A stretch of DNA of 64,000 nucleotides from a virus (IMGVR_UViG_3300043395_004688); one strand, 5' to 3'; positions 16,135-61,134 are shown, numbered from the stretch's first letter. Notes: generated by a model from the letters alone, not told the origin. A program made the numbers and translations.

Positions 16135-16136
16135 AA

Positions 16137-30117: not shown

Positions 30118-30124
30118 TATACAA

Positions 30125-30132
30125 CATAAATA
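30125..30132 (+). promoter_or_regulatory. T4-late-like promoter motif
   Basis: CATAAATA upstream of the radical SAM gene. Confidence 0.45.
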
Positions 30133-30161
30133 CCCTAGCCATTAAAAACGGATATAATTTA

Positions 30162-31667: not shown

Positions 31668-32874
31668 ATTTGTATTTCAGCATTGGGACAGCGAGCTAAA
31701 TTATTGGTTACCCAATACTGTTCCATTAGATTATCCAGATAAGAGTAACTTGCCCACGCACGGCAAACAAAGAATAGATCAGGATTTTTTAATGTCACAT
31801 CCAGACATAGAATGTCACGGACTAGAGCACAATCTAGGTAAAAAATATATTTTTCCAGTACAAATTCGAAACAGTCATTATTTTGAAAGACATGAGCATA
31901 TGGGATTTAACTGCATTGACCCCAGAGTAATCCATGATGCCCATAATAATCTGTGTAAAATAGTTTTGATATTTCCACTGGAAGGTGACAGCGGCTATGG
32001 CAGATTTAGTCGCGATTATGAAATACTTGACTCTTGGTGTAAGCAGCATCAGTTAAATTCGCAACAGGTTTATTTTATACACGGTAATCAAAATGTTGCT
32101 GATACTCAGCAATATCAATTTACCAAAGTCCCAGCCAGTATGTTTATATGTTGGAATGACCCTGTTAACAGTCTTGTGCCTTTTGAACCTGTTGACTTAA
32201 AAAATCTTTTTTTAAATTACAATAGACGAGCAAAAGAACACCGCGCACTGGTGCTGGCGCACATAATCAATGAACAGTTGTTTGACAGAGGACTAATCAG
32301 CTATCACGGCGACGGTGTTAAAAACACCCATGAAGTTTTGCGTAGTGTTTGGCACACCAATTTAACTCAAGCTGCTGATACTATAGATTCACTGATACCC
32401 TTAGAGCTTGACATGGATTTAGGAGCAAACAATCCAGCTTATAAAAACATTGTGCCAGAACACTATACCAATACATTTTTGAGTCTGGTTGCTGAAACTC
32501 ATGTTACAGAAGGTGTGCAGTTCTTTTCTGAAAAAATATGGAAACCTATCAGCGTAGGACATCCTTTTATGCTGGTTGCAAGTTCAGGCATGCTAGAACT
32601 GTTAAAATCACAAGGATATAAGACCTTTGACCAATGGTGGAATGAGGATTATGATAAAGAGACTGATCTAGATCAGCGAATAAGGATGATCCTAAGTGAA
32701 CTAAAACGGTTAAGTATGTTGTCGTTGGATGAGCTAAAGAGCATGAGAATACAAATGCAGCCAATATTGGCTTTCAACCAAAAGCTATTCAACAAACAAT
32801 GGAAAGAGTTGTGTTATCCTAGAAACGACGAGGTCGTTTTTAAAATTATTAAAGATATTTGGGATTCATTTTAA
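31657..32874 (+). CDS. Glycosyltransferase-like protein (paralogue 2)
   Basis: Likely start MSIKFVF at 31657; FLNYNRRAKEHR...SLVAET...FSEKIWKP...GYKTFDQWWNEDYD. Confidence 0.55.
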   Translation: MSIKFVFQHWDSELNYWLPNTVPLDYPDKSNLPTHGKQRIDQDFLMSHPDIECHGLEHNLGKKYIFPVQIRNSHYFERHEHMGFNCIDPRVIHDAHNNLCKIVLIFPLEGDSGYGRFSRDYEILDSWCKQHQLNSQQVYFIHGNQNVADTQQYQFTKVPASMFICWNDPVNSLVPFEPVDLKNLFLNYNRRAKEHRALVLAHIINEQLFDRGLISYHGDGVKNTHEVLRSVWHTNLTQAADTIDSLIPLELDMDLGANNPAYKNIVPEHYTNTFLSLVAETHVTEGVQFFSEKIWKPISVGHPFMLVASSGMLELLKSQGYKTFDQWWNEDYDKETDLDQRIRMILSELKRLSMLSLDELKSMRIQMQPILAFNQKLFNKQWKELCYPRNDEVVFKIIKDIWDSF

Positions 32875-35235: not shown

Positions 35236-36174
35236 ATCTTTGACCAGGCCTTGAATAATATCATTTGCTGGTAGAATTTCTTTTATTTGGTCTATTGACT
35301 TGCCAGCAAACACATGGCCTCGGCTTGGATCTTTGATTCCTACTATGAGTCCGCGTGTATTGTTCATATTTCTTTCTTTGACATCTGAGCTGAAAACCAG
35401 TGCATTTTGTTTGGTTTCCGTATAAGTGCCAGTGGAAAGTTTAGAAAGGTCTGCGGATGTTGCGCCAATCATTTTTAACTTGGTAGCTTCAGAAATTTTA
35501 CTTTCTTTACTAGCAGCCAGCAATGTTCCTATGCCAATGGCAAATGCTCCTTGAGACATGTATTCTTTCACTTGTTGACTGGTTCCAATACCGCCGGACG
35601 GAATCAATAGTTTGTCTGGAAACTTAGTTCTAAGTATGTTGCATGATTCTTCTAGAGTTAACCCTTCTACAGAACCCCGACCAGCACCATCTGGCCCTTT
35701 AACAATAAATCCATCTAAGTTTTTAGACCATACACCAGGTTCTAAGTGTGCGACCTTGTCTACAATTTTACGAAATATCAATGAGCCGTTGTCTTTAATA
35801 GACCAAATAATTTTAGGAAGCCTTTCAACTACATCATCAGGTAAAACTGTGTCATCCTTGATAATTTCAATGAGCTTGACACGATACTTTAATATCATTT
35901 CTAAAATTAAAGGATCAGTCAAAGACGACAGATTAAGACTCAGCAAGAGCTCACAGTCATTGAATTCGTTGTGATACCCTGCAAGATCCTTTTCTAAATT
36001 TTCATGTATTAAAACTATCTGATCACCAACAACATTCAAATAATTAAAAACAGACAAGCTGGGCAATGCACCAGCTCTACGCACAGCACTGGCCAGTGGC
36101 AAATCAGATACTTGATTCATTGCCATGGCAACGATAGGATAACGGCAGTTAAAAACTTCAGTAAATAGCTTCAT
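35230..36174 (-). CDS. Nitronate monooxygenase/FabK-like flavin TIM-barrel protein
   Basis: YPIVAMAM, GPDGAG, IPSGGIG, GAFAIGIGTLLAASKES. Confidence 0.75.
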   Translation of the reverse strand: MKLFTEVFNCRYPIVAMAMNQVSDLPLASAVRRAGALPSLSVFNYLNVVGDQIVLIHENLEKDLAGYHNEFNDCELLLSLNLSSLTDPLILEMILKYRVKLIEIIKDDTVLPDDVVERLPKIIWSIKDNGSLIFRKIVDKVAHLEPGVWSKNLDGFIVKGPDGAGRGSVEGLTLEESCNILRTKFPDKLLIPSGGIGTSQQVKEYMSQGAFAIGIGTLLAASKESKISEATKLKMIGATSADLSKLSTGTYTETKQNALVFSSDVKERNMNNTRGLIVGIKDPSRGHVFAGKSIDQIKEILPANDIIQGLVKDL

Positions 36175-36179
36175 ACTAA

Positions 36180-36187
36180 TACTTATC
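36180..36187 (-). promoter_or_regulatory. Late-like promoter variant
   Basis: GATAAGTA on the minus strand 5 nt before the ATG at 36174. Confidence 0.45.
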
Positions 36188-36210
36188 GTAATAATTTGGA
36201 GAAATTTACC

Positions 36211-36819
36211 ATGTCGATGAAGTTTGCAGAAACTCTGAAGTTTATCAAAGATATCAACATTGAAGGCGATCTCTTAGAAATTGGCTCTGACCGTGGAGAT
36301 GGAAGTACCTATATTTTTGCCACGCTAGCCAAAAATCTTGGGCGCCAGCTGTTTTCGGTAGATGTAGATTCTGATGTCATTGAAAAAAACCGAGAAGAAT
36401 TTAAACAATTACCCTTTGACTTACCTGTTGATTTTTTTAATCAAACCGGTGAACAGTTTTTAGAAGACCATAACAATCTTCGCTTTAGCATAGTGCTACT
36501 TGATAATTTTGATTGGGACTGGAACCCACATAACAGCGAATCTCATGTTCTAGAACAACAAAAAAAATATCGAGAACGGTTTGGCTTAGAAATGAATAAT
36601 CATCAAAGTCAATTTACCCATTTACGACAAGCACTGATGCTTACTCATATGCTAACGGATGAAGCAATAGTAATATGCGATGACACATATTGGGCACATG
36701 AATACGGAACATACACTGGCAAGTGTGGTGCTGTTATACCTTACCTAGAAACCTTAGGATTTAATGTAGTATTAAACAAAGATCATGGCATTGTTATGCT
36801 AAGAAAGAATAATCAATGA
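36211..36819 (+). CDS. Class I SAM-dependent methyltransferase
   Basis: LLEIGSDRGDGST, FSVD, VLLD, VICDD; SD GGAG favours the ATG at 36211. Confidence 0.7.
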   Translation: MSMKFAETLKFIKDINIEGDLLEIGSDRGDGSTYIFATLAKNLGRQLFSVDVDSDVIEKNREEFKQLPFDLPVDFFNQTGEQFLEDHNNLRFSIVLLDNFDWDWNPHNSESHVLEQQKKYRERFGLEMNNHQSQFTHLRQALMLTHMLTDEAIVICDDTYWAHEYGTYTGKCGAVIPYLETLGFNVVLNKDHGIVMLRKNNQ

Positions 36820-37586
36820 AAATAGTCTTAATCACCGGAGGCTTTGATCCAATACACAGCGGACACATTGCCTATATAACCGAAGCCAAAAAGCTAGGCG
36901 ACCTATTAATTGTGGGAGTCAACAGCGATGCTTGGCTTGAACGCAAAAAGGGACGAGCCTTTTTGCCCATGCACGAACGGCTGGCAATTGTAGCTGGCAT
37001 TCGAGGTGTTGATCAAACACTTATCTTCAATGACAACGATGACTCGGCTTGCGATGCTATTCAAAAAGTAAAAAACAGCTACAGCTATGCTGAACTTGTT
37101 TTTGCCAATGGCGGAGATCGAACCTCCGAAAATATTCCAGAAATGCGTATTGAAGGTGTGGAGTTTGTGTTTGGCGTAGGAGGTTCCAATAAAAAGAACA
37201 GCAGTAGTTGGATCTTGCGCGACTGGAAGCAGCCCAAAACAGACAGGGCATGGGGCGAGTATCGTGTGCTTTATGATCATCCAATGATTGGTTCTGCTAC
37301 CAAGGTCAAAGAGCTTACTGTAGAGCCAGGAAAAAAGCTCAGCCTACAGCGACACAAAAATCGTCACGAATATTGGTTTGTGGTTGAAGGCCGTTGCGAT
37401 GTTTACGGTGCATTGCCTGGGGGCTACGCGATACCTCCTAGAACCTTAGGTCCGCATGAAACCATGGAAATCCAAGCCGGAGAATGGCACCAGCTGACCA
37501 ATCCTTATAACGAACCATGCCGGCTCATTGAGATCCAGTATGGTTCACAATGTGAAGAAGCCGATATTGAACGAAATCCTGGTTGA
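36816..37586 (+). CDS. Cytidylyltransferase (RfaE/TagD-like) fused to cupin (mannose-6-P isomerase type II C-terminal-like)
   Basis: TGGFDPIHSGH, FANGGDR, KKNSSS; WGEYRVL..LSLQRHKNRHEYW..HQLTN. Confidence 0.85.
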   Translation: MKIVLITGGFDPIHSGHIAYITEAKKLGDLLIVGVNSDAWLERKKGRAFLPMHERLAIVAGIRGVDQTLIFNDNDDSACDAIQKVKNSYSYAELVFANGGDRTSENIPEMRIEGVEFVFGVGGSNKKNSSSWILRDWKQPKTDRAWGEYRVLYDHPMIGSATKVKELTVEPGKKLSLQRHKNRHEYWFVVEGRCDVYGALPGGYAIPPRTLGPHETMEIQAGEWHQLTNPYNEPCRLIEIQYGSQCEEADIERNPG

Positions 37587-44570: not shown

Positions 44571-44599
44571 TTGACTTTGTCTACTTTTCTAAATATAAT
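44571..44599 (+). promoter_or_regulatory. sigma70-type promoter with overlapping late-like motif
   Basis: TTGACT-17 nt-TATAAT; TCTAAATA at 44588-44595. Confidence 0.65.
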
Positions 44600-44623: not shown

Positions 44624-45343
44624 ATGCTAAAAGATATTGTGCTTGATGTAGCAAAAAACATCGCCAGCCTAGGAACCTTTGAAGAGGTCCTAGTTGAACA
44701 AGAAACTAACAACACTAAGTTTACTGCTTATCCAGAGGATTCGAGTATCACTGTTCTTGCCAGTAGCAAGAACAAGGTCGTAGAATTCCCAGAAAAGTTT
44801 GGTATGCTAAACCTTGGATTCTTTGTTGGATTGTCAAACCTGTATCGCGCTGACGACACTAGCGTAGCCACTGGTACCAACAGCAAAAGCGATATTGATC
44901 GTCTAGTCTTTTCCAGTAAGGATGGCAACAACGACGAATATCGACTAACACCTACCAACTTAATGAAGACCAAGAGCCGTAGCTTTAACGGCACTACCTG
45001 GGATGTTGTGGTCAATCCTGCAGCCAACAAGATCAGCGAACTGGCTCAACGAGCAGGCTTGTACGCAAGCATTGATCCAAATCTACTTGCCAGCACAGAA
45101 AATGGCAAGTTGGTTTTCACATTTGGTGGAGTCAGCGGTGGTGGCCATAGCGGCAAGTTTGTGTTTGCTGACACTACTCAAAAGCTCAAGCGTCCGGTAG
45201 CATTGCCAATCAACAGCTTGCTCATGGCACTAAAGACTGCTAGTCAAGGTACCCCAGTGGTCAGCTTTAGTGAAAAGGTTGCTAAGGTTGAATTTGATAG
45301 TGGTTTAATCAAGTACGAATATCTTATTATTGCTCAACAATAA
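44624..45343 (+). CDS. Probable sliding clamp (gp45/PCNA-like)
   Basis: 239 aa, beta-rich, directly after the polymerase; FGMLNL and C-terminal YEYLI pattern; call rests largely on size and synteny. Confidence 0.55.
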   Translation: MLKDIVLDVAKNIASLGTFEEVLVEQETNNTKFTAYPEDSSITVLASSKNKVVEFPEKFGMLNLGFFVGLSNLYRADDTSVATGTNSKSDIDRLVFSSKDGNNDEYRLTPTNLMKTKSRSFNGTTWDVVVNPAANKISELAQRAGLYASIDPNLLASTENGKLVFTFGGVSGGGHSGKFVFADTTQKLKRPVALPINSLLMALKTASQGTPVVSFSEKVAKVEFDSGLIKYEYLIIAQQ

Positions 45344-45352
45344 GAAAAAATA

Positions 45353-46915
45353 ATGACAGCAAGTAAAAAATCCAAAGTAGATTTATGGGCAAAGAACGAA
45401 GATTATGCTGTGTTCTTGCCCAGCATTTCAACTTTCTATAATACCATCATTAGCAAAGAGCGCAATGAGCCTGGTGTAAGTGTTCCACCAGACCGTGTGC
45501 CTCAAGAGTTTGAAAATGGCATTGAAGGCATGAACTTCCTTAATAAGGATGCTGCCTACTACCATTATCCTTATGCTCTTTACTCTGCTGGTCATGCACA
45601 ACTTGATCTCAGTAAAACTGACACCGAAGAATCAATGATTCAAAAGCGCGATCGCAAGAATACTTTTATTCTTGGCGACAGCGGTGGATTTCAGATTGCC
45701 AAAGGTGTTATTAAGTTCGACTGGGAAAATTTCATGGAGAGACCCGGTGACCAAGGATACAAAGGATCTGCTGACAAGACTCGCGGCCAGATTCTCAACT
45801 GGCTTGAGCATACTGCTGATTATAGCATGGTTCTTGATATTCCTACTTGGGCGGCAAGACCTCCACTGAACGAGCGCACGGGCCTACAAAGCTTCCAACA
45901 ATGTTTGGATGGTACCTTGTACAACAATGCTTGGTTCTTGGCAAATCGTAAGCATCAAACTAAGTTTTTAAATGTCTTGCAGGGCAGTAACAATCAAGAA
46001 GCTGATATTTGGTATGATGCTGTCAAACACTTCCCCTTTGAAGGTTGGGCCATGGGTGGTAACAACATGCAGGATGCACATCTGCTGTTGAGGCGCCTGA
46101 TCCAAATGCGTGACGAGGGTATGTTGGCTCCGGGTCGTGATGTAATCCATGTGCTGGGTACCAGTCGACTAGAATTTGCTATCTTTTTAACTGCGGTTCA
46201 ACGAGCTCTGCGCGAACATGTTAATCCTAACATGATGGTTACTTTTGACTGCGCTAGCCCATTTGTAGCCGTAGCATATGGTCTAAGCTATACCCAACAT
46301 GTACACAGCAACGACCGTTTCACTTATGTGATGGAAAAGGCTGTTGATAATCGCGAACTCAGTGGCAGCAAAATTCCTTGGCCGTGGAACAGTCCAATCG
46401 GTGAAAGATTAACCATGGGCGATATTTGCTATTACAAGCCTGGTCAGGCTAATAAAACTGGCAAGGTATCAAGGACTAGTTGGGATACATTTAGTTACAG
46501 CCTAATTATGGCTCACAATGTCTACCAACACATTGAGTCGGTTCAACGAGCCAATGCCCTTGCAGATGTTGCACATAAGCTAACCAGACCTGATCCAAGA
46601 GAATGGAGGAAAGGACGGCAAAGAAGTCAAGAAGGTCAGCTTGACTTATGGGTGCCGCGTAATGTATTATACATTATGGAACTAGTAGACCAAGTGTTTA
46701 AAGTTGAAAACCCTTATGAGTTATTGAATCAGTGTAGCTCACTGCTCTCAGAATTTTCTGGCCGCAAGACTCGCAAGAGCGGAGCAGAAGCAGTACACGA
46801 CATCTTTACCACTGACGACGGATCAAGTGCAACAGAAATGGCTGAAGGTGGCGAGTTTGATGATCCTAATGATCCTAAGTTGATGGAACTTGAACAACTG
46901 GCTAAGGATGAATGA
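45353..46915 (+). CDS. dpdA: TGT-superfamily transglycosylase, phage DpdA/DpdA2-like
   Basis: ILGDSGGFQI, MVLDIP, LNVLQG, GWAMGG, IHVLG, TFDCASP; near folE and queE. Confidence 0.75.
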   Translation: MTASKKSKVDLWAKNEDYAVFLPSISTFYNTIISKERNEPGVSVPPDRVPQEFENGIEGMNFLNKDAAYYHYPYALYSAGHAQLDLSKTDTEESMIQKRDRKNTFILGDSGGFQIAKGVIKFDWENFMERPGDQGYKGSADKTRGQILNWLEHTADYSMVLDIPTWAARPPLNERTGLQSFQQCLDGTLYNNAWFLANRKHQTKFLNVLQGSNNQEADIWYDAVKHFPFEGWAMGGNNMQDAHLLLRRLIQMRDEGMLAPGRDVIHVLGTSRLEFAIFLTAVQRALREHVNPNMMVTFDCASPFVAVAYGLSYTQHVHSNDRFTYVMEKAVDNRELSGSKIPWPWNSPIGERLTMGDICYYKPGQANKTGKVSRTSWDTFSYSLIMAHNVYQHIESVQRANALADVAHKLTRPDPREWRKGRQRSQEGQLDLWVPRNVLYIMELVDQVFKVENPYELLNQCSSLLSEFSGRKTRKSGAEAVHDIFTTDDGSSATEMAEGGEFDDPNDPKLMELEQLAKDE

Positions 46916-46916
46916 G

Positions 46917-47438
46917 ATGAGTGGAATTGATCGTATCGCAAAGGATTTTTTTCTTGGCGTTGAGGTAGAAAATTCTCCTGCCAAGTCAATGCAAACCTTG
47001 TTTGTTGTTGGGCTTCAGTCTGCGGATCAAGTGCTTGGTCTTGCAATTGAACACTATTGTGAACATGTATACCTGGGTGCCAACATGAGTATGCATTATC
47101 TACAGTATACGGATCATGATGAATGGGAAAAGTGGGATCGGCTAATCGAAGCCTTGACACACAGCCCAATGATCAAGTATATTACAGTTGATATTACAAC
47201 TGATCAAGTTGAGGGGTTCGTCGAAAGCATGGCATCTGAAAGTAACAAGGTAATTCCAATGATTTCGGTGAAACTACCTTATGTAAAATTGCTTAACTAC
47301 AATACTACGATCAAGCTCGACGACAAGGGTTTTGATCAAACCAATCCAGGAGTATGGTGTCACTTGCTACATGATTTAATGGATCGAGAACATTTTACTC
47401 CATGGATAGCCTACAATGGCGACACTCCCGTAAATTAA
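46917..47438 (+). CDS. Hypothetical protein in the deazaguanine cluster
   Basis: ORF between the dpdA-like and dpdL-like genes; TLFVVG, HVYLGAN, NPGVWCH. Confidence 0.65.
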   Translation: MSGIDRIAKDFFLGVEVENSPAKSMQTLFVVGLQSADQVLGLAIEHYCEHVYLGANMSMHYLQYTDHDEWEKWDRLIEALTHSPMIKYITVDITTDQVEGFVESMASESNKVIPMISVKLPYVKLLNYNTTIKLDDKGFDQTNPGVWCHLLHDLMDREHFTPWIAYNGDTPVN

Positions 47439-47461: not shown

Positions 47462-47668
47462 ATGAGTGAATCAGACGAAGTTAAGGTTGGTAGCTTTAAT
47501 AAGGTTCCAAAGCGTCCAATTCCAAATGGTGCTGCCAATGGTGCCGCACCTGTTGCCGAAGTCAGCAATGCTGATATTTCTGCAAAGCTGGATCAAATGA
47601 ACAAGCATCTTCAGGCTATTGACTGGAAGATGTGGGTTTATCTCAAGGCCAATAACTATATTGATTAA
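47462..47668 (+). CDS. Small hypothetical protein
   Basis: 68 aa; SD-like AAGGAAA. Confidence 0.6.
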   Translation: MSESDEVKVGSFNKVPKRPIPNGAANGAAPVAEVSNADISAKLDQMNKHLQAIDWKMWVYLKANNYID

Positions 47669-47676
47669 GGATTAAC

Positions 47677-48048
47677 ATGTCACAAGACATGATTTGGGTT
47701 ACCTTCCGTAAAGAAGGTATTCATAGGTATCCTGCCGCAGGGCAGGATCCAAAGCTCGCAAGCGGCGATGAGTATGATGTAAGTTTCTTGCAGTATCCGC
47801 ATCGTCATATCTTTCATTTCAAAGTTTATCTAGAGGTCTTCCATGACGACAGAGATGTAGAGTTTATTCAGTTTAAGCGTTGGCTAGAAAATTTGTACAG
47901 CCAAGGCACACTTGAATTGAATTACAAATCGTGTGAAATGATTGCTGATGATCTTCATAAGGAAATCTCAGCAAAATATACAAGTCGTAAAATTTGGATT
48001 GAAGTCTCGGAGGATGGCGAAAATGGATGCATCAAACAATACTCTTAA
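47677..48048 (+). CDS. T-fold QueD paralogue, DpdL-like (putative CDG decarboxylase)
   Basis: LQYPHRHIFHF matches LxxxHRHxF rather than the QueD CxxxHGH motif; C-terminal SCEMIA...EVSEDGENG. Confidence 0.65.
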   Translation: MSQDMIWVTFRKEGIHRYPAAGQDPKLASGDEYDVSFLQYPHRHIFHFKVYLEVFHDDRDVEFIQFKRWLENLYSQGTLELNYKSCEMIADDLHKEISAKYTSRKIWIEVSEDGENGCIKQYS

Positions 48049-48481
48049 TACTCGTGTTCGTTTTGATAGGAGAGAGCGTGTGAATACATATAATAACAAT
48101 CAACCCAAGCGGGCTGGTCTTAATCTTAATCATATTAAGTTTGATCTGCTTAAGATCAGTGAACTATATGATGGTGTTCTAACCGAAGACCTTGGTCATT
48201 TGCCTTTGAATCTTTATAATCAGTATCTTACTGATTTGGTTCGAGATCGCTATATTCATAGCTACAACATTGAGACGCCAGAAATGCGTACTCATGAAGC
48301 CACAGGAGATCGTAGTTTTACCTATACGATCAATGTTCAAAACTCACCTGAGCGGTCTAGCAAGGCCCTCAAGATTCATGTGGGCTTTTACAAGAGTGCT
48401 TGGGCGCCAACCACTCGTCATACTGCTGACGGTATGTGCTGTATGCCCGACCGCTTAGATCGAGAGGACACCAATGCGTAA
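48023..48481 (+). CDS. Hypothetical protein
   Basis: SD GGAGG 9 nt before the ATG at 48023. Confidence 0.6.
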   Translation: MDASNNTLNTRVRFDRRERVNTYNNNQPKRAGLNLNHIKFDLLKISELYDGVLTEDLGHLPLNLYNQYLTDLVRDRYIHSYNIETPEMRTHEATGDRSFTYTINVQNSPERSSKALKIHVGFYKSAWAPTTRHTADGMCCMPDRLDREDTNA

Positions 48482-49685
48482 ACTCTACTACATGGGATTA
48501 GAACCCTATGAGGGTAGATATACGCTACAACTACAGCAATGGAATGAAGCGGTGTTCAAGCGCCGCAACATTAACTATGTTGTTGTTCCAGGTAAGACCA
48601 TTGACAATACCCGAGCTATCAGTGTAGGTCAAGTGTTAGATGCACATGGCCGCAGTTACTTTGGTATGAGCCAAATGATGAACTTGGTTCAGTTGATGCG
48701 AAGCGGCGAAGTTACCGGCGAGGATGTCGTCTATTTTGAAGACATGTTTCAGCCCGGTATCGAATCGCTTCCATACATCATGGATCAGATTCCGGCCAAT
48801 CAACGACCAAGAGTTTTTGTGCGGTGTTTGGCACAGGCCATTGACCCCGATGACTTTGTTCATGTTTGGGGCATGAGCAAGTGGATGAGCTTGTACGAAC
48901 ACATGGTGAATGAGTTTGTTACTGGTGTACTTGCGACCAATGAGGAAATGGTAGCTCACATGCGTATTGCTAATTGGACTGCTCCAATCTACAATATCAG
49001 TGGACTAGCATTTGGTAAAGAAGAAGTAAGAGGTCGTGTTAATAATAAGATTAAATCTTGGCCTGAGAGAGCAAATCGTGTAGTCTTTGCCGCAAGATTT
49101 GATCAAGAAAAGCAGCCAGACTTCTTTATGGATGTCATTGAAGAATGGCATCGTCAGTGGCCTGGAATTCCAGTTGAGTTTGCAGTATTAAGCGGCGGGC
49201 CGTTGCGTAGCAACAATCCCAAGTATCTAGAGCGAGCCGCACAAATGGAGGCACTAGGTAAACTAAAAATTTACAAAGACCTTAAAAAGAATGATTACTA
49301 TAATTTGGTCAACGATAGCCGTGTGCTTTTTAATTGTGCTTTACAGGACTGGGTATCTAACACAGTTTCGGAAGCTGATGCTCTTGGTTGTAATGTGCTA
49401 TATCCTGCTTATCGCAGTTTCCCTGAAACCTTTGCCAACGATCACACTAGGTTGTATGTGCCCTGGAGCATCGATGACGCAGTGAACAAACTGCGAATCC
49501 AGCTAGCTGGCCCACATGTTAATCAAGGCAAGATCAGTGACTGGAATAATGGCACCATTGATCGCATCTTAGACATTATGGAAACTGCTGGTACTGTTGC
49601 CGAAGGCGGAATGGCTTGTAAAGCCACCCAATGGAATCGTTCTGGTAATCGATACAGAGACCATGTTGCTGGGGCCAAGTACTAA
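48474..49685 (+). CDS. GT-B glycosyltransferase (GT4/T4 alpha-glucosyltransferase-like)
   Basis: VVFAARFDQEKQPDFF, VLFNCALQDWVSNTVSEADALGCNVLYP; N-terminal GLE..R.T. Confidence 0.75.
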   Translation: MRKLYYMGLEPYEGRYTLQLQQWNEAVFKRRNINYVVVPGKTIDNTRAISVGQVLDAHGRSYFGMSQMMNLVQLMRSGEVTGEDVVYFEDMFQPGIESLPYIMDQIPANQRPRVFVRCLAQAIDPDDFVHVWGMSKWMSLYEHMVNEFVTGVLATNEEMVAHMRIANWTAPIYNISGLAFGKEEVRGRVNNKIKSWPERANRVVFAARFDQEKQPDFFMDVIEEWHRQWPGIPVEFAVLSGGPLRSNNPKYLERAAQMEALGKLKIYKDLKKNDYYNLVNDSRVLFNCALQDWVSNTVSEADALGCNVLYPAYRSFPETFANDHTRLYVPWSIDDAVNKLRIQLAGPHVNQGKISDWNNGTIDRILDIMETAGTVAEGGMACKATQWNRSGNRYRDHVAGAKY

Positions 49686-50678
49686 ATGGACAAGTGGGTT
49701 GCTGTTACAGGGGCCTGTGGCTACATTGGTGGGCAAACAGTCTTAAAGTTCAAAGACAAGGGCTATAAAGTACTGGGCGTAGACCGTGCCGCAACTGCGC
49801 CATGGATTCGTCAAGCCTGTGATGCATTTGTCGAGGGTGATTTTACCAACCTTATGTTTATTCTCAATGTTGTTAATAACAATGTTGAGGCAATCATACA
49901 TTGTGCTGGGACTAGTCTAGTTGGTCCCAGCGTTCTAAGTCCTGGTCAGTACTATGTCAACAATGTTGGCAATACCGCCAAGCTCTTGGCCATTTTAAAA
50001 GAAAATAAATGGCAAGGTACTTTTGTATTTTCAAGTAGCGCGGCTGTCTATGGCAATCCCGTAGAGTTTCCATTAACTGAAAATTCGTTAAAGGTACCAG
50101 TTAGTCCCTATGGTCATAGCAAGCTTATGACTGAGCAAGCTATAAAGGACTGCGCCTTTGCATATAACCTAAAGGCCATTTCGCTGAGATACTTTAATGC
50201 CTGTGGAGCCGATCTCAAAGGACGACACGGACAATTAAAAAATGCCACGCATCTAATTGCAAGAATCATGGAGAGTGTACTCAATAAGAGTGTGTTTACT
50301 TTAAATGGTACCAACTACGATACACCAGATGGTACTTGTGTTCGTGACTACTTACATGTTGATGATATTGCCAACGCACATTACCTCTCTGTACAATACG
50401 CACAGACTATGGAAACTGGTAGTAGCCAAGAATTTAACCTAGGCACTGGCACTGGTATCAGCATCAACGAAATCATAGCCAGTGTTGAAAGAAATATTCC
50501 ATACAAGGTTCTAGTACATAAAGGACCGCGTCGTGAAGGCGATCCTGCTAAATTAGTTGCTAGTTCCAGTAAAATTGTCAAGCACATGGGTTGGAAACCT
50601 GAAAACAGCAGCATCGATAACATTGTTCGATCTGCTTGGGCTTGGTATAACTCGACTGAATTTAAAAATAGAGCATGA
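49686..50678 (+). CDS. galE: UDP-glucose 4-epimerase
   Basis: TGACGYIG, FSSSAAVYG, YGHSK, LRYFNACG, DGTCVRDYLHV. Confidence 0.9.
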   Translation: MDKWVAVTGACGYIGGQTVLKFKDKGYKVLGVDRAATAPWIRQACDAFVEGDFTNLMFILNVVNNNVEAIIHCAGTSLVGPSVLSPGQYYVNNVGNTAKLLAILKENKWQGTFVFSSSAAVYGNPVEFPLTENSLKVPVSPYGHSKLMTEQAIKDCAFAYNLKAISLRYFNACGADLKGRHGQLKNATHLIARIMESVLNKSVFTLNGTNYDTPDGTCVRDYLHVDDIANAHYLSVQYAQTMETGSSQEFNLGTGTGISINEIIASVERNIPYKVLVHKGPRREGDPAKLVASSSKIVKHMGWKPENSSIDNIVRSAWAWYNSTEFKNRA

Positions 50679-51013
50679 AACTAAATCAACATGACATTGG
50701 CGGTGAAGTTGTTAAGAGCAACGAGACCTATGTGCTCAAAGACAATCGCACTTTAAAAAATCTAGTATTGAGTAGCACTCTTCTATATCGAGGACAGCAG
50801 ACTCGCGGACACCGACACAGCGGCCAAGAAGAAGTGTACTTCTTTGTCCAAGGCAACGGTAAAATGATTGTCGGTGACGAAACCAGTGAACCCTTTATCG
50901 TCAATGCAGGAGATGTTGTACTAATTCCAGATGGTGCTTTTCATCGCGTAATTAACGATGGTGAAATGCACATGATGTTTAATTGTGTCTTTGACGGAAA
51001 GCGTAATCACTAA
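50675..51013 (+). CDS. Cupin-domain protein
   Basis: GHRHSGQEEVYFFVQG...IPDGAFHRVIN. Confidence 0.85.
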   Translation: MKLNQHDIGGEVVKSNETYVLKDNRTLKNLVLSSTLLYRGQQTRGHRHSGQEEVYFFVQGNGKMIVGDETSEPFIVNAGDVVLIPDGAFHRVINDGEMHMMFNCVFDGKRNH

Positions 51014-51453
51014 TGAAAGTAGGTTTTACTTGTTCAACCTTTGACCTCTTACATGCAGGTCATGTAGCAATGTTACAAGAAGCAAAAACTCAATGCGACT
51101 ATTTGATTGTAGGTCTACAAAACGACCCAACCCTTGATCGCCCTAGCAAAAATAAGCCTGTACAAAGCATTGTTGAACGGCAGATGCAGTTGCGAGGAAG
51201 TAAATATGTTGATGAGGTTTGGATCTATAACACAGAAAAAGACCTCGAAGATTTACTTTTAACCTTACCACTTAATGTGCGTATCTTGGGCGTTGAGTAT
51301 GAGGGTAAAGAATTTACCGGACGAGAAATTTGTCATAAACGAAATATTGACTTGTATTTTAACAAACGCGATCACAGCTTTAGTTCAAGCAGTCTAAGAA
51401 GGCGAGTGTATGAAGCTGAAGTTGCCAAGGAATGGATAAATGAAAATCAGTGA
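51013..51453 (+). CDS. Cytidylyltransferase (TagD-like)
   Basis: TFDLLHAGH, RDHSFSSSSLR. Confidence 0.85.
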   Translation: MKVGFTCSTFDLLHAGHVAMLQEAKTQCDYLIVGLQNDPTLDRPSKNKPVQSIVERQMQLRGSKYVDEVWIYNTEKDLEDLLLTLPLNVRILGVEYEGKEFTGREICHKRNIDLYFNKRDHSFSSSSLRRRVYEAEVAKEWINENQ

Positions 51454-51871
51454 TTTAAAAGAAAATGTAAATGATGCATGGTTTGAAACTGGCAGCTTCA
51501 AGACTTTTAAAAAGCCTGCACAAGAAAAATATGAAGTTGCACAACAGGCAGGAACTGTTGACACTTTAGAAGGACCTGTTCGCTATGAAGCTGGTCATTA
51601 TATTATGACTGGTCCCAAGGGAGAAAAATATCCTATTACTCCTGAAAAGTTTGCAGATCTCAAAGATGATTTTGGAAATGGCATTGCTAGCCCCAAGAAG
51701 ATAATGAAGGTAGCCAAGCTTGCTGACCATGATGGTGTGTTGCACACCTCCTGGGGCGACTTGAATTACACCGCTGGCAATGACTATATTGTTCGTCATG
51801 GTCCAAACGACTACGGCGCCGTGAAGAAAGATATCTTCATGCAAACCTATGATACTTCAGGAATTAACTAA
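51440..51871 (+). CDS. Hypothetical protein with internal duplication and CTS-like leader
   Basis: MKISDLKE leader; TLEG..RYEAGHYIMTGPKGEKYPI and TSWG..NYTAGNDYIVRHGPNDYG repeats. Confidence 0.65.
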   Translation: MKISDLKENVNDAWFETGSFKTFKKPAQEKYEVAQQAGTVDTLEGPVRYEAGHYIMTGPKGEKYPITPEKFADLKDDFGNGIASPKKIMKVAKLADHDGVLHTSWGDLNYTAGNDYIVRHGPNDYGAVKKDIFMQTYDTSGIN

Positions 51872-52119
51872 TGGAAGTTGTAATTTACAGCAAGGACAAT
51901 TGTCCATACTGCGATATGGCCAAGAACTGGTTCAAACGAAAGAACCTTACTTTTACTGAACACAAAATTGGAACCAATGGTTTTACTAGAGAAATGCTAT
52001 TAGAAGCTGTACCAACGGCAAGAACCGTTCCTCAAATCATCGTTGATGGTGAATTAATTGGTGGCTGGACTGATTTGTGTCAAAGCAAGTTGTATGCCCA
52101 GTACAGTAATTCAAACTGA
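51871..52119 (+). CDS. Glutaredoxin
   Basis: CPYC, TVPQI, IGG. Confidence 0.92.
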   Translation: MEVVIYSKDNCPYCDMAKNWFKRKNLTFTEHKIGTNGFTREMLLEAVPTARTVPQIIVDGELIGGWTDLCQSKLYAQYSNSN

Positions 52120-52384
52120 GTATCGGTTAAAAACAGTACTGCCCTTGGAACAAGTGCCTGACCTAAGAAGTTGGCTACAAAATAACCTCGGGCATTCCTC
52201 AACAGCATGGAAGATTGAAACGCACAGTGGATCTTTTTTTAACTGGCGAGGAATTGCAGGTGCTGTTAAATCTAAAAATCCCGAAACTAAATTGCCAGTT
52301 ACTGTAATTGTAACGGTATATGAATTTAAACATTTGCTGATCTTTGCTAAGTCCTGGGAAACCGAGCTATTGCTAGAAGAGTAA
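52094..52384 (+). CDS. Hypothetical protein, distant member of the 38-41 kb family
   Basis: SWLQNN...VTVYEFKHLLIFAKSW. Confidence 0.55.
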   Translation: MPSTVIQTEYRLKTVLPLEQVPDLRSWLQNNLGHSSTAWKIETHSGSFFNWRGIAGAVKSKNPETKLPVTVIVTVYEFKHLLIFAKSWETELLLEE

Positions 52385-52402
52385 GATTTTGCTATAATAT
52401 AG

Positions 52403-52468: not shown

Positions 52469-53152
52469 ATGTCATATAACAAAACAAAAACCGATCCCGC
52501 CTTGGGACAACTTGTACACGAGCACTTGGTCAAGTGTGGTGTAGAAACTCCAGTAAATCAGAACAGCCTAGACCGTAAAGAAAAGATTGATCTCATTGAG
52601 AGCCACTTTACCAAGATCATGCAGACTCTTGGATTAGATCTCAGCGATGACAGCCTCATCGAAACACCCAAGCGTGTGGCCAAGATGTATGTCAACGAAA
52701 TCTTCTGGGGCCTTGACTATGATGCATTTCCTAAATGCACCACAGTTGACAACAAGATGAAATACGACGAAATGGTTGTCGAGCGTAATGTCAATGTACA
52801 AAGCAACTGCGAACATCACTTTGTGGTAATTGATGGTGTGGCCACTGTTGCTTACATTCCCAAGCAAAAGGTTCTAGGACTTAGCAAGATCAACCGCGTA
52901 GTTGAATACTTTGCCAAGCGTCCACAGATCCAAGAACGCCTCACCGAGCAGGTCTATCACGCACTACAATACATTTTAGAAACCGACGACATTGCCGTAG
53001 TCGTAGATGCCCAGCATTACTGCGTTAAGAGTCGCGGTGTCGAAGATGTTGGTTCATCTACAGTAACCAGCAAACTTGGTGGTGTGTTTAAGTCTGATCC
53101 AAGCGTTCGCTTAGAGTTTATGAACATCGTTAATAACTGTAAAAGAGGGTAA
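52469..53152 (+). CDS. folE: GTP cyclohydrolase I
   Basis: ETPKRVAKM, SNCEHH, GLSKINR, RPQIQERL, HYCVKSRG. Confidence 0.96.
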   Translation: MSYNKTKTDPALGQLVHEHLVKCGVETPVNQNSLDRKEKIDLIESHFTKIMQTLGLDLSDDSLIETPKRVAKMYVNEIFWGLDYDAFPKCTTVDNKMKYDEMVVERNVNVQSNCEHHFVVIDGVATVAYIPKQKVLGLSKINRVVEYFAKRPQIQERLTEQVYHALQYILETDDIAVVVDAQHYCVKSRGVEDVGSSTVTSKLGGVFKSDPSVRLEFMNIVNNCKRG

Positions 53153-53153
53153 A

Positions 53154-53669
53154 GTGAGTGACAAGAAAGATCAAAGTTATAACACCGATGACATAAACAT
53201 TGGTTGGGAATCGCCTTGCCCGTCTCAAGACTATATTGTTCAAGGCGACTACTGCAATATGGGCATGCCAAGTGCCTCTGTTACTGCAACCACTACTAGC
53301 CTTGACATATCAAACATGGGCGCCGCAGGGTCTGTTTATGCCATAGACACTACCGACACCATTGACCTTAGCAGTATCACCATTGGCAGCGGCGGTAATA
53401 CTACTATCAACAGTAATCCTTATACATTTTCAACTTGGGAAACTAAAAACACTTTGAATGGTGTTGAGGAAATACACACCAAGTCCGGTAAGAAGATTGA
53501 TGTTGATGAACTGGCTGAAGTTGTTGAAACTATCAAAAAGCGGTTGCTGATACTAACACCAAACTTTGAAATGCATGAAAAATATCCAATGCTCAAAGAA
53601 CTCTATGAAGAATACAAGGCATTGGAAAAGCTTTTAGGCGGTCCAGACAACGAGGAAAATAATGGTTAA
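53154..53669 (+). CDS. Hypothetical protein
   Basis: GTG start; Thr/Ser-rich N-terminal half, helical C-terminus. Confidence 0.6.
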   Translation: MSDKKDQSYNTDDINIGWESPCPSQDYIVQGDYCNMGMPSASVTATTTSLDISNMGAAGSVYAIDTTDTIDLSSITIGSGGNTTINSNPYTFSTWETKNTLNGVEEIHTKSGKKIDVDELAEVVETIKKRLLILTPNFEMHEKYPMLKELYEEYKALEKLLGGPDNEENNG

Positions 53670-54162
53670 ACAATCACTGTCTTGGAATGAAGTTACCTGT
53701 TTGGTTAATGATTTAGCTAGACAGGTTTCTTTATCAAACTGGAAACCTGATTACATTGTAGGACTGGTTCGTGGTGGATGTGTTCCTGCTGTTATGCTCA
53801 GTCACTACCTTAATGTTCCTTGCGAATCATTGAAGGTAAGTCTGCGCGATGGAGGCAGTTGCGAAAGCAACCTATGGATGGCTGAAGATGCATACGAGGG
53901 GAAAAATATCTTGGTAGTTGACGATATCAATGATTCGGGTGCTACCATTAACTGGATCAAGCAAGATTGGCCCAGTGGTTGTTTTCCAGATGATGAAAAG
54001 TGGATCAATGTTTGGGAAAACAATGTGAAATTTGCTGTATTGGTTGACAACTCTGCCAGCGAAGCGTATAGTAACTTCTGCGGCATGACTGTTAACAAGG
54101 CCGAAAATGATGTTTGGATTGATTTTCCTTGGGAATCTTTTTGGAATAGGAACACACAATGA
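53662..54162 (+). CDS. Type I phosphoribosyltransferase (XGPRT-like)
   Basis: VGLVRGG, ILVVDDINDSGAT PRPP-binding loop, WIDFPWE. Confidence 0.9.
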   Translation: MVKQSLSWNEVTCLVNDLARQVSLSNWKPDYIVGLVRGGCVPAVMLSHYLNVPCESLKVSLRDGGSCESNLWMAEDAYEGKNILVVDDINDSGATINWIKQDWPSGCFPDDEKWINVWENNVKFAVLVDNSASEAYSNFCGMTVNKAENDVWIDFPWESFWNRNTQ

Positions 54163-54569
54163 AAGTAGGATTTAGTCTGGGTCGGTGTGTGCGAGATATT
54201 GTCAAAGGTCTAGTTGACATTGAAGATGTAGTTGTTGTCATTGCAGGTACTCGTATTGAGACCCAGGAGCAACTGGCCAGAGTGATTACCGAATATATGT
54301 ATCGACACGACTACCTTGCCGGACTTGATGAAGCCCAGTGTCAAGGAGTTGCTAGTGTGCTTTGGACTGAAGGTAAGGTTCATCAATCGCGACTAAGTGG
54401 ACATTATGCTAGACGCATTAACGAAGAAAGTGTTTGGGCGGATCTTGTGCCAACAGGAGGATTCAATAATCCCATGGTACAGGATGCATGGAACGAATAT
54501 CGAGGAACTCTTTCCATCACAGAAAGTGCGCCCGAAAAAGAAGATGTTGCCAATAATTGGAGATTATAA
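54159..54569 (+). CDS. Hypothetical protein
   Basis: 136 aa; overlapping start and stop. Confidence 0.65.
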
Positions 54570-54895
54570 TGACCTATGTTGTAACCGAGTCATGTATTAA
54601 ATGCAAGTTTACAGATTGTGTAGAAGTATGTCCTGTTGACTGTTTTTATGAAGGACCAAATTTTTTAGTTATCAATCCCGACGAGTGTATTGATTGCGGA
54701 GTGTGTGTTCCGGAATGCCCTGTTGAAGCTATTGTTGCTGATAACGACATCAGTGAAGAACAGAAGCCTTTCATTGAAATCAACAAGCGGCTGAGCTATG
54801 TTGGTTGGCCGGTTATTACCAAGCGCAAGGAAGCGTTGCCTAGTGCCGACGAGTTTAAAGACATCAAGAGCAAAAGGCACTTGCTCGAGGAATGA
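54569..54895 (+). CDS. fdxA: 7Fe ferredoxin (FdxA-type)
   Basis: [41 protein letters not shown]. Confidence 0.93.
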
Positions 54896-55656
54896 TAGAT
54901 TTTGCCAGCCTTATCAATCTAGATGATTGTGCTACTTTAGCCAAGAAATATTCTGGTGTAGTAGCATTGCCATTGGCGTTGCCAAAATTTACTTGGGACT
55001 CTGAAAAAGAGTTCTGGCGCATTTGGAATACGGATAATGCTGGTGTTACAAGGCAGCACATTGATCGTGGGGCACAAGGCAGATCGGCACCTCGAACTGA
55101 TCTAGTGCAATGGGATGGACTGGCCTTGTATGAGGACCATACACTTTTAGATAAGGCTGCATGGCTCACTAAGGTTTCGCAAGAACTGAGAGAGACCCAG
55201 CCTCAATTTTTGAACTCAATTTTTGATCTTATGCCATTTAGTCGCATACGATCTGTTAGACTATGGAGTGCTAACAAACCAATTCCAGCGCACTATGATG
55301 GCAATATGCCTGCGTCGCTTGATGGTAAATTACAGTTTCCTGCTGAAATAAGAATCATGCTACACGATGCTAATACAACAGAAACTTTCTGGTGCTGTTC
55401 GTCTACCAAGTATCGTCCAGGCCCTGATACTGTTGTTCCTGACAATGATCGCTACTACATTAAATTGCCCACGGACTCAAACACATTTGCGTGGAACAAT
55501 GAAGGATACTTGCACGGTGCAGATTACCATTCTCCGCATAGAAAAATTCTTGCAGTAATTAAAGGTTGGGTTGATACTAGAAGACTAGAAAAATTACTTG
55601 ATCAAAGCATTGAAAAATATCCTTCGCTAATTCTTAGAGAGAAACTAAATGACTAA
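54892..55656 (+). CDS. Possible 2OG-Fe(II) oxygenase-fold protein
   Basis: PAHYDG...YLHGA...RKI. Confidence 0.5.
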
Positions 55657-58028: not shown

Positions 58029-59048
58029 ATGAGAATCGAAGAAGATATTAAGTTGGACTTTCGTGATGTGCTGATTCGCCCCAAGCGAAGCACACTGGCT
58101 AGTCGCAAGGAAGTAGAACTAAAGCGTACATATACCTTTAAGCACAGCGGCTGGGAGTGGTCTGGTGTTCCTGTTATGGCTGCTAACATGGACGGCGTTG
58201 GAACCACTGCCATGGCTGAAGCGTTGTACGAGCATCGCATGTTTACCTGCTTGGTTAAAAACTACGACGAAGATCAGTTGTTTGATCTAGTTGGCGGTAT
58301 TGGTGGCAATTACTTTGCTGTTAGTACTGGCATTGGCGAAAAAGACTTTGTTAGACTGAGCCGCATCATCAATGCCTATCCAGAGATTCACTTTATTTGT
58401 ATTGATGTTGCCAACGGCTACAGTGAACAGTTTGGCGACTATGTAGCAGATGTTAGAGAAGCGTTCCCTCATTGCACTATCATTGCTGGCAATGTAGTTA
58501 CTGCTGACATGACTCAAGAACTTATTTTGAGAGGAGCAGACATTGTCAAAGTTGGAATCGGACCGGGATCGGTATGTACGACTAGGTTACAAACTGGGGT
58601 TGGCTACCCGCAACTTAGTGCGATCATTGAGTGCGCTGATGCGGCGCATGGGCTTGGTGGACATATCATTGCTGACGGCGGGTGTACTTGCCCAGGCGAT
58701 GTGGCTAAAGCATTTGGTGCAGGCGCAGACTTTGTTATGCTGGGTGGCATGTTAGCCGGACACGACGAAGGTGGTGGCACAGTCGAAGATGGCAAGGTAA
58801 AGTTTTATGGCATGAGTTCAGATACTGCCATGAACAAGCATCACGGTGGTGTTGCCGAGTATCGTAGCAGTGAAGGTAGAACTGTAGAAATTCCTTACCG
58901 CGGTGCTGTCACGCATACTGTGATGGATCTACTTGGAGGCTTGCGTAGCACCTGTACCTATGTTGGTGCACCAACACTCAAGCAGTTGCCCAAATGTACT
59001 ACCTTTATTCGCGTCAACAGACAAATCAACGATGTGTTCCTAAAGTGA
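58029..59048 (+). CDS. guaC: GMP reductase
   Basis: [60 protein letters not shown]. Confidence 0.95.
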
Positions 59049-59993: not shown

Positions 59994-60272
59994 ATGAATT
60001 CAATGACACGAGAAGAAGAGATCCTAACTGTTCTGCAAGAAGAATGTGCCGAAGTCAGCCAAATGGTGTGTAAGATCCGTAGGTTTGGCATTGACGAGAC
60101 TCACCTCAAGGAAGGCGGATCTAATCGCGAGCGCCTAACCGAAGAAGTAGGGGATTTACAAGCGGCGATAGATCTGTTAAAATTACACAATATAGTCAAT
60201 GAACATGATATCGAACTAGCCAAGCAACGCAAGTTTGAAAAGTTAAAAAGGTGGTCAAAAATCTATGAATGA
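59994..60272 (+). CDS. MazG-like NTP pyrophosphohydrolase
   Basis: LQEECAEV...LTEEVGDL (ExxE...ExxD). Confidence 0.8.
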   Translation: MNSMTREEEILTVLQEECAEVSQMVCKIRRFGIDETHLKEGGSNRERLTEEVGDLQAAIDLLKLHNIVNEHDIELAKQRKFEKLKRWSKIYE

Positions 60273-61134
60273 ATTTAAAGTAAGCGAAATCTTTTACTCA
60301 GCACAAGGTGAAGGACGCTTTGTAGGTGTGCCCAGTGTGTTCTTTAGAACATTTGGTTGTAACTTCAAGTGTGCAGGATTTGGTTTGCCCAAGGGCGAAA
60401 AAACCACAGAGCCTGATGAGATTGGTAAAAGTGTTCACTTATACAAGACATTCAACGACTTGCCATTGGCCAAAGCCGGTTGCGATAGCTATGCTAGCTG
60501 GCATCCTGCCTTTAAGCATTTGAGTCCAACTTATACAGTTGATCAAAGCATTGATGCAATGCTGGCATTGACTCCCAACCATCACTGGAAGCAAAACAAC
60601 GGCAATGATGTTCATTTGGTTGTTACTGGCGGTGAACCGTTGCTGGGATGGCAACAGCTATATCCTGCACTACTGAGTCATCCTAGAATGACAGACCTCG
60701 ACAACCTGACATTTGAAACCAATGGTACTCAAATGTTGCATGACGAATTTTACGATTATCTTTTCCAGGACTGGACTAGGTTTGGTCGCGATGCTGATAA
60801 TCTTACATTTAGTGTTAGCCCTAAGCTTAGTGCCAGCGGCGAGCGTTGGGAACAAGCTATCAAGCCAGATGTAGTACAACAGTATCAAACTGTTGGGCAT
60901 GTTTATTTGAAATTTGTAATTGAAAAAATTGAAGACTTTGAAGAAGTAGATCAAGCAGTTATGGAATTTAGAGCTGGTGGCTTTGGTGGACAGGTCTATG
61001 TAATGCCCGTAGGTGGCACTGATGCCGCTTACTTTGCAAACAACAAACACATTGCTGACGAAGCTTTAGCAAGAGGTTATCGTTACAGCCCAAGATTGCA
61101 TGTGGACATTTGGAGCAACGGATGGGGCAAATGA
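60265..61134 (+). CDS. queE: 7-carboxy-7-deazaguanine synthase (radical SAM)
   Basis: EIFYSAQGEG..VFFRTFGCNFKC...CDS, VTGGEP, FETNG, SVSPKL, SPRLH. Confidence 0.9.
   Translation: MNEFKVSEIFYSAQGEGRFVGVPSVFFRTFGCNFKCAGFGLPKGEKTTEPDEIGKSVHLYKTFNDLPLAKAGCDSYASWHPAFKHLSPTYTVDQSIDAMLALTPNHHWKQNNGNDVHLVVTGGEPLLGWQQLYPALLSHPRMTDLDNLTFETNGTQMLHDEFYDYLFQDWTRFGRDADNLTFSVSPKLSASGERWEQAIKPDVVQQYQTVGHVYLKFVIEKIEDFEEVDQAVMEFRAGGFGGQVYVMPVGGTDAAYFANNKHIADEALARGYRYSPRLHVDIWSNGWGK

Follow-up and report, generated by a model that had tools for sequence, protein, structure and literature searches.

In a 64,000-nt stretch of DNA from the virus IMGVR_UViG_3300043395_004688 (hereafter the window), the gene for a GT4-like glycosyltransferase (GT) forms part of one overlapping run of genes together with DpdL, the T-fold protein proposed to decarboxylate 7-carboxy-7-deazaguanine (CDG), and the UDP-glucose 4-epimerase GalE, and the association of GT with DpdL recurs in very different phages. 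GT and GalE are best explained as a conserved addition to 7-deazaguanine DNA modification of the DpdL type. Going one step further, we give even chances to the view that the GT of DpdL clusters adds a sugar to 7-deazaguanine in DNA, i.e., that these phages carry a glycosylated 7-deazaguanine, an acceptor suggested by the genes with which the GT is found. The literature that we searched holds no paper that connects a glycosyltransferase with DpdA or DpdL, nor any describing a glycosylated deazaguanine in DNA, and the word stem "glycosyl" is absent from the DpdL paper (Cui et al. 2023, PMC10516641). The source of the window is a freshwater jumbo phage: an identical GT sits on a 327-kb contig, the stretch is found in several freshwater metagenomes, and a DNA search of a phage collection with the window gave no near relative.

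Linkage of the glycosyltransferase gene to DpdL

The DpdL of the window carries the motif LQYPHRHIF, which fits the signature LxxxHRHxF of this family, as opposed to CxxxHGH in QueD (PMC10516641). It is 32.5% identical to CGPG_00067 of phage phiST (BLASTP E 5e-13) and 64% identical to its counterpart in phage Phosso, and in our tree the DpdL clade splits from QueD with 100/100 support. Gene neighborhoods were compared in the 80 closest IMG/VR loci by GT similarity (GT 70-89% identical; all counts out of 80 refer to these), a choice that makes the conservation of GT partly a selection effect and leaves the co-occurrence counts unaffected. DpdL adjoins GT in all 73 loci whose sequence reaches 1.5 kb or more upstream of GT, and GalE follows GT in 70 of the 71 that reach as far downstream; the median gap between the latter two genes is -3 nt, i.e., GalE is translationally coupled to GT. 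The commonest order in these loci is clamp, DpdA, p182 (a conserved 182-aa protein), DpdL, GT, GalE, and FolE.

The same pairing holds in a distant clade, whose GT is ~30% identical to the window GT and in which DpdL stands beside GT in 15 out of 15 loci, with QueD, QueE, and FolE alongside. The DNA polymerase differs (family A fused to a UDG domain in the distant clade, family B here), and in both the module lies near polymerase and clamp. In these distant loci (L095-L106, e.g., L105:14440-17070) the module adjoins a DnaB-like helicase, a beta clamp, and the family A DNA polymerase-UDG fusion; a 2026 paper associates polymerases of this architecture with phages having hypermodified thymine. 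Cultured phages also carry GT in the deazaguanine cluster: Synechococcus phage BUCT-ZZ01 (GT 71% identical to the window GT), Acidovorax phage ACP17 (order DpdA, GT, DpdL, QueE), Xanthomonas phages X1 and BUDD (GT, DpdA, DpdL, QueE), Burkholderia phage BCSR5 and Sinorhizobium phage Phosso (GT beside DpdL), and 11 PA5oct-like Pseudomonas jumbo phages. Orders vary among these carriers (DpdA-GT-DpdL, GT-DpdA-DpdL, DpdL-GT), as do the types and lengths of DpdA. The initial annotation had proposed, from the window, a coupling of GT and GalE to deazaguanine genes, and this is borne out by GT-DpdL adjacency in more than 100 loci of very different phages with rearranged gene orders. BUCT-ZZ01 has, moreover, a second, GT1-type glycosyltransferase of 447 aa (L001:6010-7353) inside its deazaguanine cluster, between FolE and the DpdA-like gene, which hints at a disaccharide.

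The GT family comprises at least 7,981 proteins in 90% clusters (816 clusters at 50% identity), and all full-length members found among the sampled IMG/VR loci and cultured phages lie in DpdL clusters. Xanthomonas phage PhiXhv-12 has a far more distant GT4 (L107:8866-9969; also in PhiXhv-15/-16, Ep026, and Ep032) right after GlmS and a BshB-like deacetylase and without deazaguanine genes nearby, a locus that may represent a different, amino-sugar-based system. A single-protein scan of a genome collection gave one contig with a match, and an IMG/VR scan with the protein P0153 gave none. Clamp, DpdA, p182, DpdL, GT, GalE, FolE, and QueD are all found on NZ_JBBAKG010000058.1, a 39-kb contig in a Haliscomenobacter metagenome-assembled genome; either a phage contig was binned wrongly or this gives a faint indication of the host. 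A freshwater metatranscriptome has contigs identical to the module, with uneven depth peaking over DpdL and the 5' half of GT, and DNA carry-over may contribute to this signal.

GT is nevertheless an optional component of DpdL phages. No family member is present in the whole genomes of five of them (phiST, RHph_I1_18, Bakedbeans, Ahp1, and D479), as judged by a search that recovered GT in all five control phages. In the DpdL tree, phages with and without GT are intermixed, RHph_I1_18 grouping with X1, ACP17, and BCSR5 (95/88) and Ahp1 with PA5oct (99/94). DpdL thus seems to serve one and the same function in either group, and the simplest reading is that GT is an extra, dispensable downstream step that was gained or lost several times. 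In phiST, plain 2'-deoxy-7-deazaguanine (dDG), reported as a 267 Da species, was shown to replace deoxyguanosine (PMC10516641). Vibriophage VP1, like phiST, is a natural source of DNA with complete exchange of deoxyguanosine for dDG. In another GT-less phage, Vibrio phage Bakedbeans, DpdL (gp176, L008:11182-12363) is fused to an N-terminal domain of ~270 aa without a family match.

Donor, acceptor, and alternative targets

Against Pfam the window GT scores just short of the cut-offs for Glycos_transf_1 (25.6 bits; cut-off 26.4) and Glyco_trans_1_4 (24.8; cut-off 27), and its relatives P0160 (27.7) and P0170 (34.8, PF13692) exceed Pfam cut-offs. The AlphaFold2 model (predicted local distance difference test, pLDDT, 93.5; predicted template-modeling score, pTM, 0.91) has a clear GT-B fold, i.e., two Rossmann-like domains with a cleft between them. 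It resembles GT4-type enzymes (Foldseek E 6e-12), with fold matches (VIA) to sucrose-phosphate synthase (Z 27.2), BshA (26.8), BGluT (24.0), and T4 alpha-glucosyltransferase (21.1) over ~320-350 aligned residues; the best viral fold matches are members of its own family, e.g., the ACP17 protein, and QTMAN is absent from the 30 best Swiss-Prot fold matches. In 49 aligned sequences, each 29-58% identical to the query, R208, E212, and K213 do not vary and D292-x7-E300 (QDWVSNTVSE) is nearly invariant, so that the nucleotide-sugar donor site looks intact. By position, as in GT4 enzymes, we take R208/K213 to be the diphosphate Arg/Lys pair and D292-x7-E300 an EX7E-type motif, the first acid being Asp, not Glu. 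The N-terminal, acceptor-side domain is strongly conserved across the family. A predicted GT-DpdL binding score of 0.00 speaks neither for nor against binding, and the isoelectric point of GT, 6.5, says nothing on DNA binding.

As to what receives the sugar, the initial annotation saw no hydroxymethyl-pyrimidine synthase in the window, and in agreement with this no thymidylate-synthase-like gene occurs among the scanned open reading frames (ORFs), which are part of those in the window. The ThyA family includes the known dCMP and dUMP hydroxymethylases. A check for synthases of hydroxymethylcytosine and hydroxymethyluracil in five relatives, of which three are complete to 99-100% with genomes of ~345 kb, found a ThyA-family enzyme (PF00303) in none of the five and ThyX in all of them. 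QueC gave just two marginal matches in these relatives (17 to 23.5 bits) and no significant one in the three complete genomes, and a search for Tet/JBP was empty and, being run without a positive control, uninformative. A doubly modified genome, which had been put forward as an alternative, is thereby weakened: the three complete relatives have ThyX and no ThyA-family hydroxymethylase.

We postulate that FolE, QueD, and QueE would convert GTP to CDG, QueD being encoded outside the window or contributed by the host, and that DpdL would then remove the carboxyl group. The DpdA-like transglycosylase would exchange guanine in phage DNA for 7-deazaguanine, and only after this insertion would the GT4-like enzyme put a hexose on the deazaguanine; in the window phage this hexose would probably be galactose, donated by UDP-galactose that the phage's own GalE produces. 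The phosphoribosyltransferase might recycle the guanine that DpdA sets free. The phage would likely benefit in that the base is hidden from restriction and from the host's DNA glycosylases against plain 7-deazaguanine. According to a 2025 preprint, PA5oct DNA withstands restriction enzymes whose sites contain G, and the modified G is not identified there (PMC12191111). Many Vibrio integron glycosylases selectively hit a phage with full dDG substitution (preprint 10.1101/2025.10.29.685425), which offers a plausible selective reason to cover the base.

Our guess for the point of attachment is C7, the nucleophilic pyrrole carbon freed by decarboxylation, although N2, O6, or a hydroxyl introduced by an oxygenase may also serve. 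The guess follows general heterocycle chemistry: C7, the equivalent of C3 of indole, is where 7-deazapurines react with electrophiles. We hold it unlikely that the product has a C-C glycosidic bond at C7 of 7-deazaguanine in DNA, with the sugar depending on the lineage (galactose here, amino sugars where DegT follows GalE); if true, neither a glycosylated purine analogue nor a C-glycosylated base would have been described in a genome before. A glycosyl ester on 2'-deoxy-7-carboxy-7-deazaguanine was set aside, as it would leave DpdL without a role. The window also encodes a ferredoxin (DUF3470 type) overlapping a 254-aa protein with HYD and HGADYH motifs (54557-55656; 9-15 of 80 loci), possibly an electron donor and an oxygenase; if this pair hydroxylates the base, the acceptor problem would be solved in that sub-clade only.

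Several points weigh against a sugar on 7-deazaguanine in DNA. The decarboxylase activity of DpdL is itself a prediction (PMC10516641), and within the 64-kb window there is no canonical QueD, the comparison of small ORFs of unknown function with QueD by hhalign being empty too. The top fold matches of GT use small-molecule or sugar acceptors (BshA, MshA, sucrose-phosphate synthase, and a pterin glucosyltransferase), and T4 alpha-glucosyltransferase ranks only 26th; the fold search on the model does not separate a DNA-acting enzyme from a small-molecule one, the likeness being that of GT4 enzymes in general. Other sugar clusters in the genome (28.8-37.6 kb) could likewise use the products of GalE. 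Finally, plain 7-deazaguanine has no hydroxyl, so that only a ring carbon or nitrogen, N2, or O6 could accept the sugar, and we know of no GT4-type enzyme that makes a C-glycoside.

Some of these observations would suit a GT whose substrate is a free small molecule, be it CDG, a pterin intermediate, or the deazaguanine base itself, and whose product is either a soluble glycoside, comparable to cyanobacterial pteridine glycosides, or a pre-glycosylated base to be inserted by DpdA. Its nearest structures are small-molecule GT4 enzymes, including UDP-glucose:tetrahydrobiopterin glucosyltransferase (Z 24.0), and FolE, a PTPS-like T-fold protein, and GT together resemble a pterin-glycoside pathway; moreover, GT is always closest to DpdL, not DpdA, and DpdA in the clade of the window is unusually large (520 aa). 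We still consider this unlikely, as the module is always accompanied by QueE and a DpdA-type transglycosylase and lies among replication genes, as DpdL of GT-bearing phages interleaves with that of phiST, which puts dDG into DNA, and as a soluble glycoside would bring the phage no obvious benefit. Nor are we aware of pterin glycosides reported for Pseudomonas, Acidovorax, Xanthomonas, Burkholderia, or Sinorhizobium, the hosts of module phages.

It is also improbable that GT decorates an unrelated target (a different DNA base, a protein of the virion or of replication, or a glycan on the host surface) and only shares an early, replication-linked operon with DpdL. The genome does have the other sugar cluster at 28.8-37.6 kb, and the distant GT4 of PhiXhv-12-type phages, next to GlmS and the BshB-like deacetylase, manages without deazaguanine genes nearby. 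Yet GT and DpdL stay adjacent despite different polymerases, different DpdA types, and rearranged orders, full-length family members were found only in DpdL clusters among the loci sampled, and the complete relatives have no hydroxymethyl-pyrimidine synthase. Very unlikely, in our view, is an auxiliary factor for making or inserting 7-deazaguanine (acting as a scaffold or via a short-lived glycosyl intermediate) that leaves no sugar on the final product, for although dpdL and dpdA of ACP17, between which GT lies in that phage, yielded no dDG in Escherichia coli, the genes of phiST, a phage without GT, failed in the same way (PMC10516641), and the conserved nucleotide-sugar residues and the tight coupling of GalE, DegT, and other tailoring genes argue for real sugar transfer.

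If GT does place a sugar on deazaguanine in DNA, this would constitute a new class of DNA hypermodification that joins 7-deazaguanine replacement with glycosylation. To our knowledge, glycosylation of DNA bases has so far been known on pyrimidines. It would explain the extra genes of some DpdL phages, predict their resistance to DNA glycosylases that target 7-deazaguanine, provide a new enzyme for tagging DNA, and bear on how such genomes are sequenced and restricted. The module is not uncommon, as thousands of GT-family members occur in freshwater and other metagenomes, and its carriers include the PA5oct/Paride group, which is studied for Pseudomonas therapy.

Gene content around the module

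The initial annotation listed a chain of six genes from the DpdL-like gene to a cytidylyltransferase-like one, and all six are indeed there on the plus strand, each overlapping or abutting the next (Table 1). They are part of a longer, single operon-like run that extends from a sliding clamp (44624) to a glutaredoxin (52119) in the order clamp, DpdA-like, p182, 68-aa ORF, DpdL, hypothetical, GT, GalE, cupin, nucleotidyltransferase, PGDYG protein, and glutaredoxin. No convincing terminator was seen between the promoter candidate ahead of the clamp gene and 52.1 kb, and family searches with the hypothetical protein between DpdL and GT gave no match.

Table 1 Features of the window in and around the GT-DpdL module (positions counted from the first letter of the window; loci out of the 80 closest by GT similarity)
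Feature	Position	Strand	Evidence and remarks
Sigma-70-like promoter candidate	44571..44599	+	TTGACT-17-TATAAT, 11/12 matches; within the 69-nt gap ahead of the clamp gene; consensus match only
Sliding-clamp-like protein	44624..45343	+	First gene of the run; phrog_12062 4e-27; 27.6% identity to Phosso DNA polymerase III beta clamp annotation; 67/80 loci
DpdA-like DNA guanine transglycosylase, 520 aa	45353..46915	+	TGT-type motifs GDSGGFQ, NVLQGS, H(V/F)LGTS; 71/80 loci
p182, conserved 182-aa protein	46890..47438	+	Frequent third partner; 68/80 loci
Small 68-aa ORF	47462..47668	+	No family match; only in closest relatives (9/80 loci)
DpdL-like T-fold protein, proposed CDG decarboxylase	47677..48048	+	LQYPHRHIF, residues 38-46; phrog_17812 3.5e-32
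Hypothetical protein	48014..48481	+	ORF open from 47942, likely start ATG 48014 or 48023; only in nearest relatives (20/80 loci)
GT4-like GT-B glycosyltransferase, presumably retaining	48474..49685	+	Key gene; overlaps the hypothetical by 8 nt
UDP-glucose 4-epimerase GalE	49686..50678	+	TIGR01179 310.7 bits (cut-off 262.3), covering 5-324 of 330; begins at the base directly following the GT stop
Small cupin	50675..51013	+	Variable accessory; Cupin_2 3e-13; 4-nt overlap with GalE; 13/80 loci
Cytidylyl/adenylyl-transferase-like nucleotidyltransferase	51013..51453	+	Variable accessory; CTP_transf_like 5e-12; 1-nt overlap; 28/80 loci
PGDYG-domain protein and glutaredoxin	51440..52119	+	End of the overlapping run; PF14083 5e-7; Glutaredoxin 1e-15
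GTP cyclohydrolase I (FolE)	52469..53152	+	First step of the pathway; PF01227 1.7e-62; 64/80 loci; promoter-like site at 52370-52398
Xanthine/guanine-type phosphoribosyltransferase	53662..54162	+	Pribosyltran 2e-14; xanthine phosphoribosyltransferase model 1.6e-13, below cut-off; 28/80 loci, BUCT-ZZ01, PA5oct
Truncated NDP-sugar dehydrogenase-like protein, 261 aa	55649..56434	+	UDPG_MGDP_dh central domain 3.5e-18, model positions 74-297 of 413; 26/80 loci
QueE-like radical SAM CDG synthase	60265..61134	+	Weak matches to five QueE models, 1e-11 to 1e-6; 45% identity to annotated QueE of BUCT-ZZ01

The DpdA-like protein has no match in Pfam or among PDB sequences, also when searched by profile. 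A protein-atlas feature search places it with a TGT cluster (0.94) and the DpdA PF23859 cluster (0.88), hhalign aligns its motifs at low probability with the annotated TGT of X1 and DpdA3 of phiST, and it is 38% identical to EST35_0316 of PA5oct. Homologues of p182 occur in ACP17, probably in BCSR5, and, as a family (f13) just upstream of GT, in the distant clade (hhalign 95.8%; jackhmmer). The AlphaFold2 model of p182 (pLDDT 80) resembles metallo-hydrolases or phosphoesterases only weakly (template-modeling score <0.5); its profile found no match among PDB sequences, and a fold search with the model found none that is credible. The "glycosylase" of Phosso, tried against p182 by hhalign, is unrelated.

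Further downstream, the region of FolE and QueE also holds a MazG-like ORF, and QueC was not among the scanned ORFs of the window. Between the FolE and QueE genes are a GMP reductase (58029-59048) and the purine phosphoribosyltransferase, which would fit a salvage or rerouting of guanine set free by the transglycosylase. The QueE-like protein has an unusual spacing for a radical SAM cluster motif, FGCNFKCAGFG with the next Cys ~37 residues on (GCDS).

The sugar genes behind GalE are less constant than the initial annotation assumed when it counted the cupin and the cytidylyltransferase as members of the module. Tailoring genes vary among the 80 close loci: DegT, which follows GalE, in 34, the nucleotidyltransferase in 28, the dehydrogenase in 26, a methyltransferase in 24, HIT in 20, the cupin in just 13, and a SPASM radical SAM protein in 12, with DegT, for example, replacing cupin and nucleotidyltransferase elsewhere. 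A constant transferase with changing sugar-making genes is the pattern expected of diversifying glycan decoration. That the last gene of the six encodes a nucleotidyltransferase-like protein holds, whereas its designation as cytidylyl is not established, since its best NCBIfam matches, RfaE domain II and TagD, are each under their cut-offs; in some relatives this gene sits upstream of the clamp, adjoining the dehydrogenase. The NDP-sugar dehydrogenase announced at 55649 is present but has only 261 aa, its C-terminal part being missing.

A second, separate sugar cluster was also correctly recognized. It spans 28831-37586 and consists of a radical SAM protein, a 786-aa protein with an NDP-sugar dehydrogenase N-terminus, a minus-strand nitronate-monooxygenase-like gene, a methyltransferase, and a nucleotidyltransferase-cupin fusion, the last mirroring the split cupin/nucleotidyltransferase pair at 50675-51453. 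Elsewhere the window encodes a papain-family cysteine protease (2404-3153; Peptidase_C1, 3e-16) and, as unusual phage cargo, a homologue of the curli-secretion channel CsgG (14248-17237; PF03783, 1e-50) followed by a weak curlin-repeat protein and a FecR-domain protein.

Comparison with known systems

The dDG system of phiST (PMC10516641) is the closest in gene content, sharing with the window FolE, QueE, a DpdL with LxxxHRHxF, a DpdA-like transglycosylase, and, as far as the ORFs of the window were scanned, the absence of QueC; its guanine is replaced by 7-deazaguanine without cyano or amino side chains. It differs in having no GT in its genome, no GalE, and no p182, and in a DpdA of the DpdA3 type (259 aa vs 520 aa here), and the window, for its part, has no canonical QueD. 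With the alpha- and beta-glucosyltransferases of T4 the likeness is that of a phage GT-B enzyme encoded among DNA-metabolism genes, expected to use a UDP-sugar and to decorate a modified base (Z 21.1 to the alpha enzyme), although the window GT has no Pfam match to either T4 family. In T4 the acceptor is the hydroxymethyl OH on a pyrimidine, whereas here the relatives have no hydroxymethylase and the partner pathway yields a purine analogue without a hydroxyl. Cyanobacterial BGluT (PDB 5ze7/5zer) has a GT4-like fold (Z 24.0) and acts on the product of a FolE/PTPS-type T-fold pathway; it differs in using the side-chain hydroxyl of a soluble pterin, in having no link to QueE or a DNA transglycosylase, and in its identity of just 12%. 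Queuosine in tRNA is glycosylated to mannosyl- and galactosyl-queuosine by QTMAN/GTDC1 and QTGAL, respectively, and QTMAN is a GT-B enzyme of the GT4 type. That system modifies tRNA, not DNA, at the cyclopentenediol hydroxyl of queuosine, an acceptor that is impossible here, yet what it has in common with the product proposed for the DpdL clusters is a sugar on a 7-deazaguanine derivative already inside a nucleic acid.

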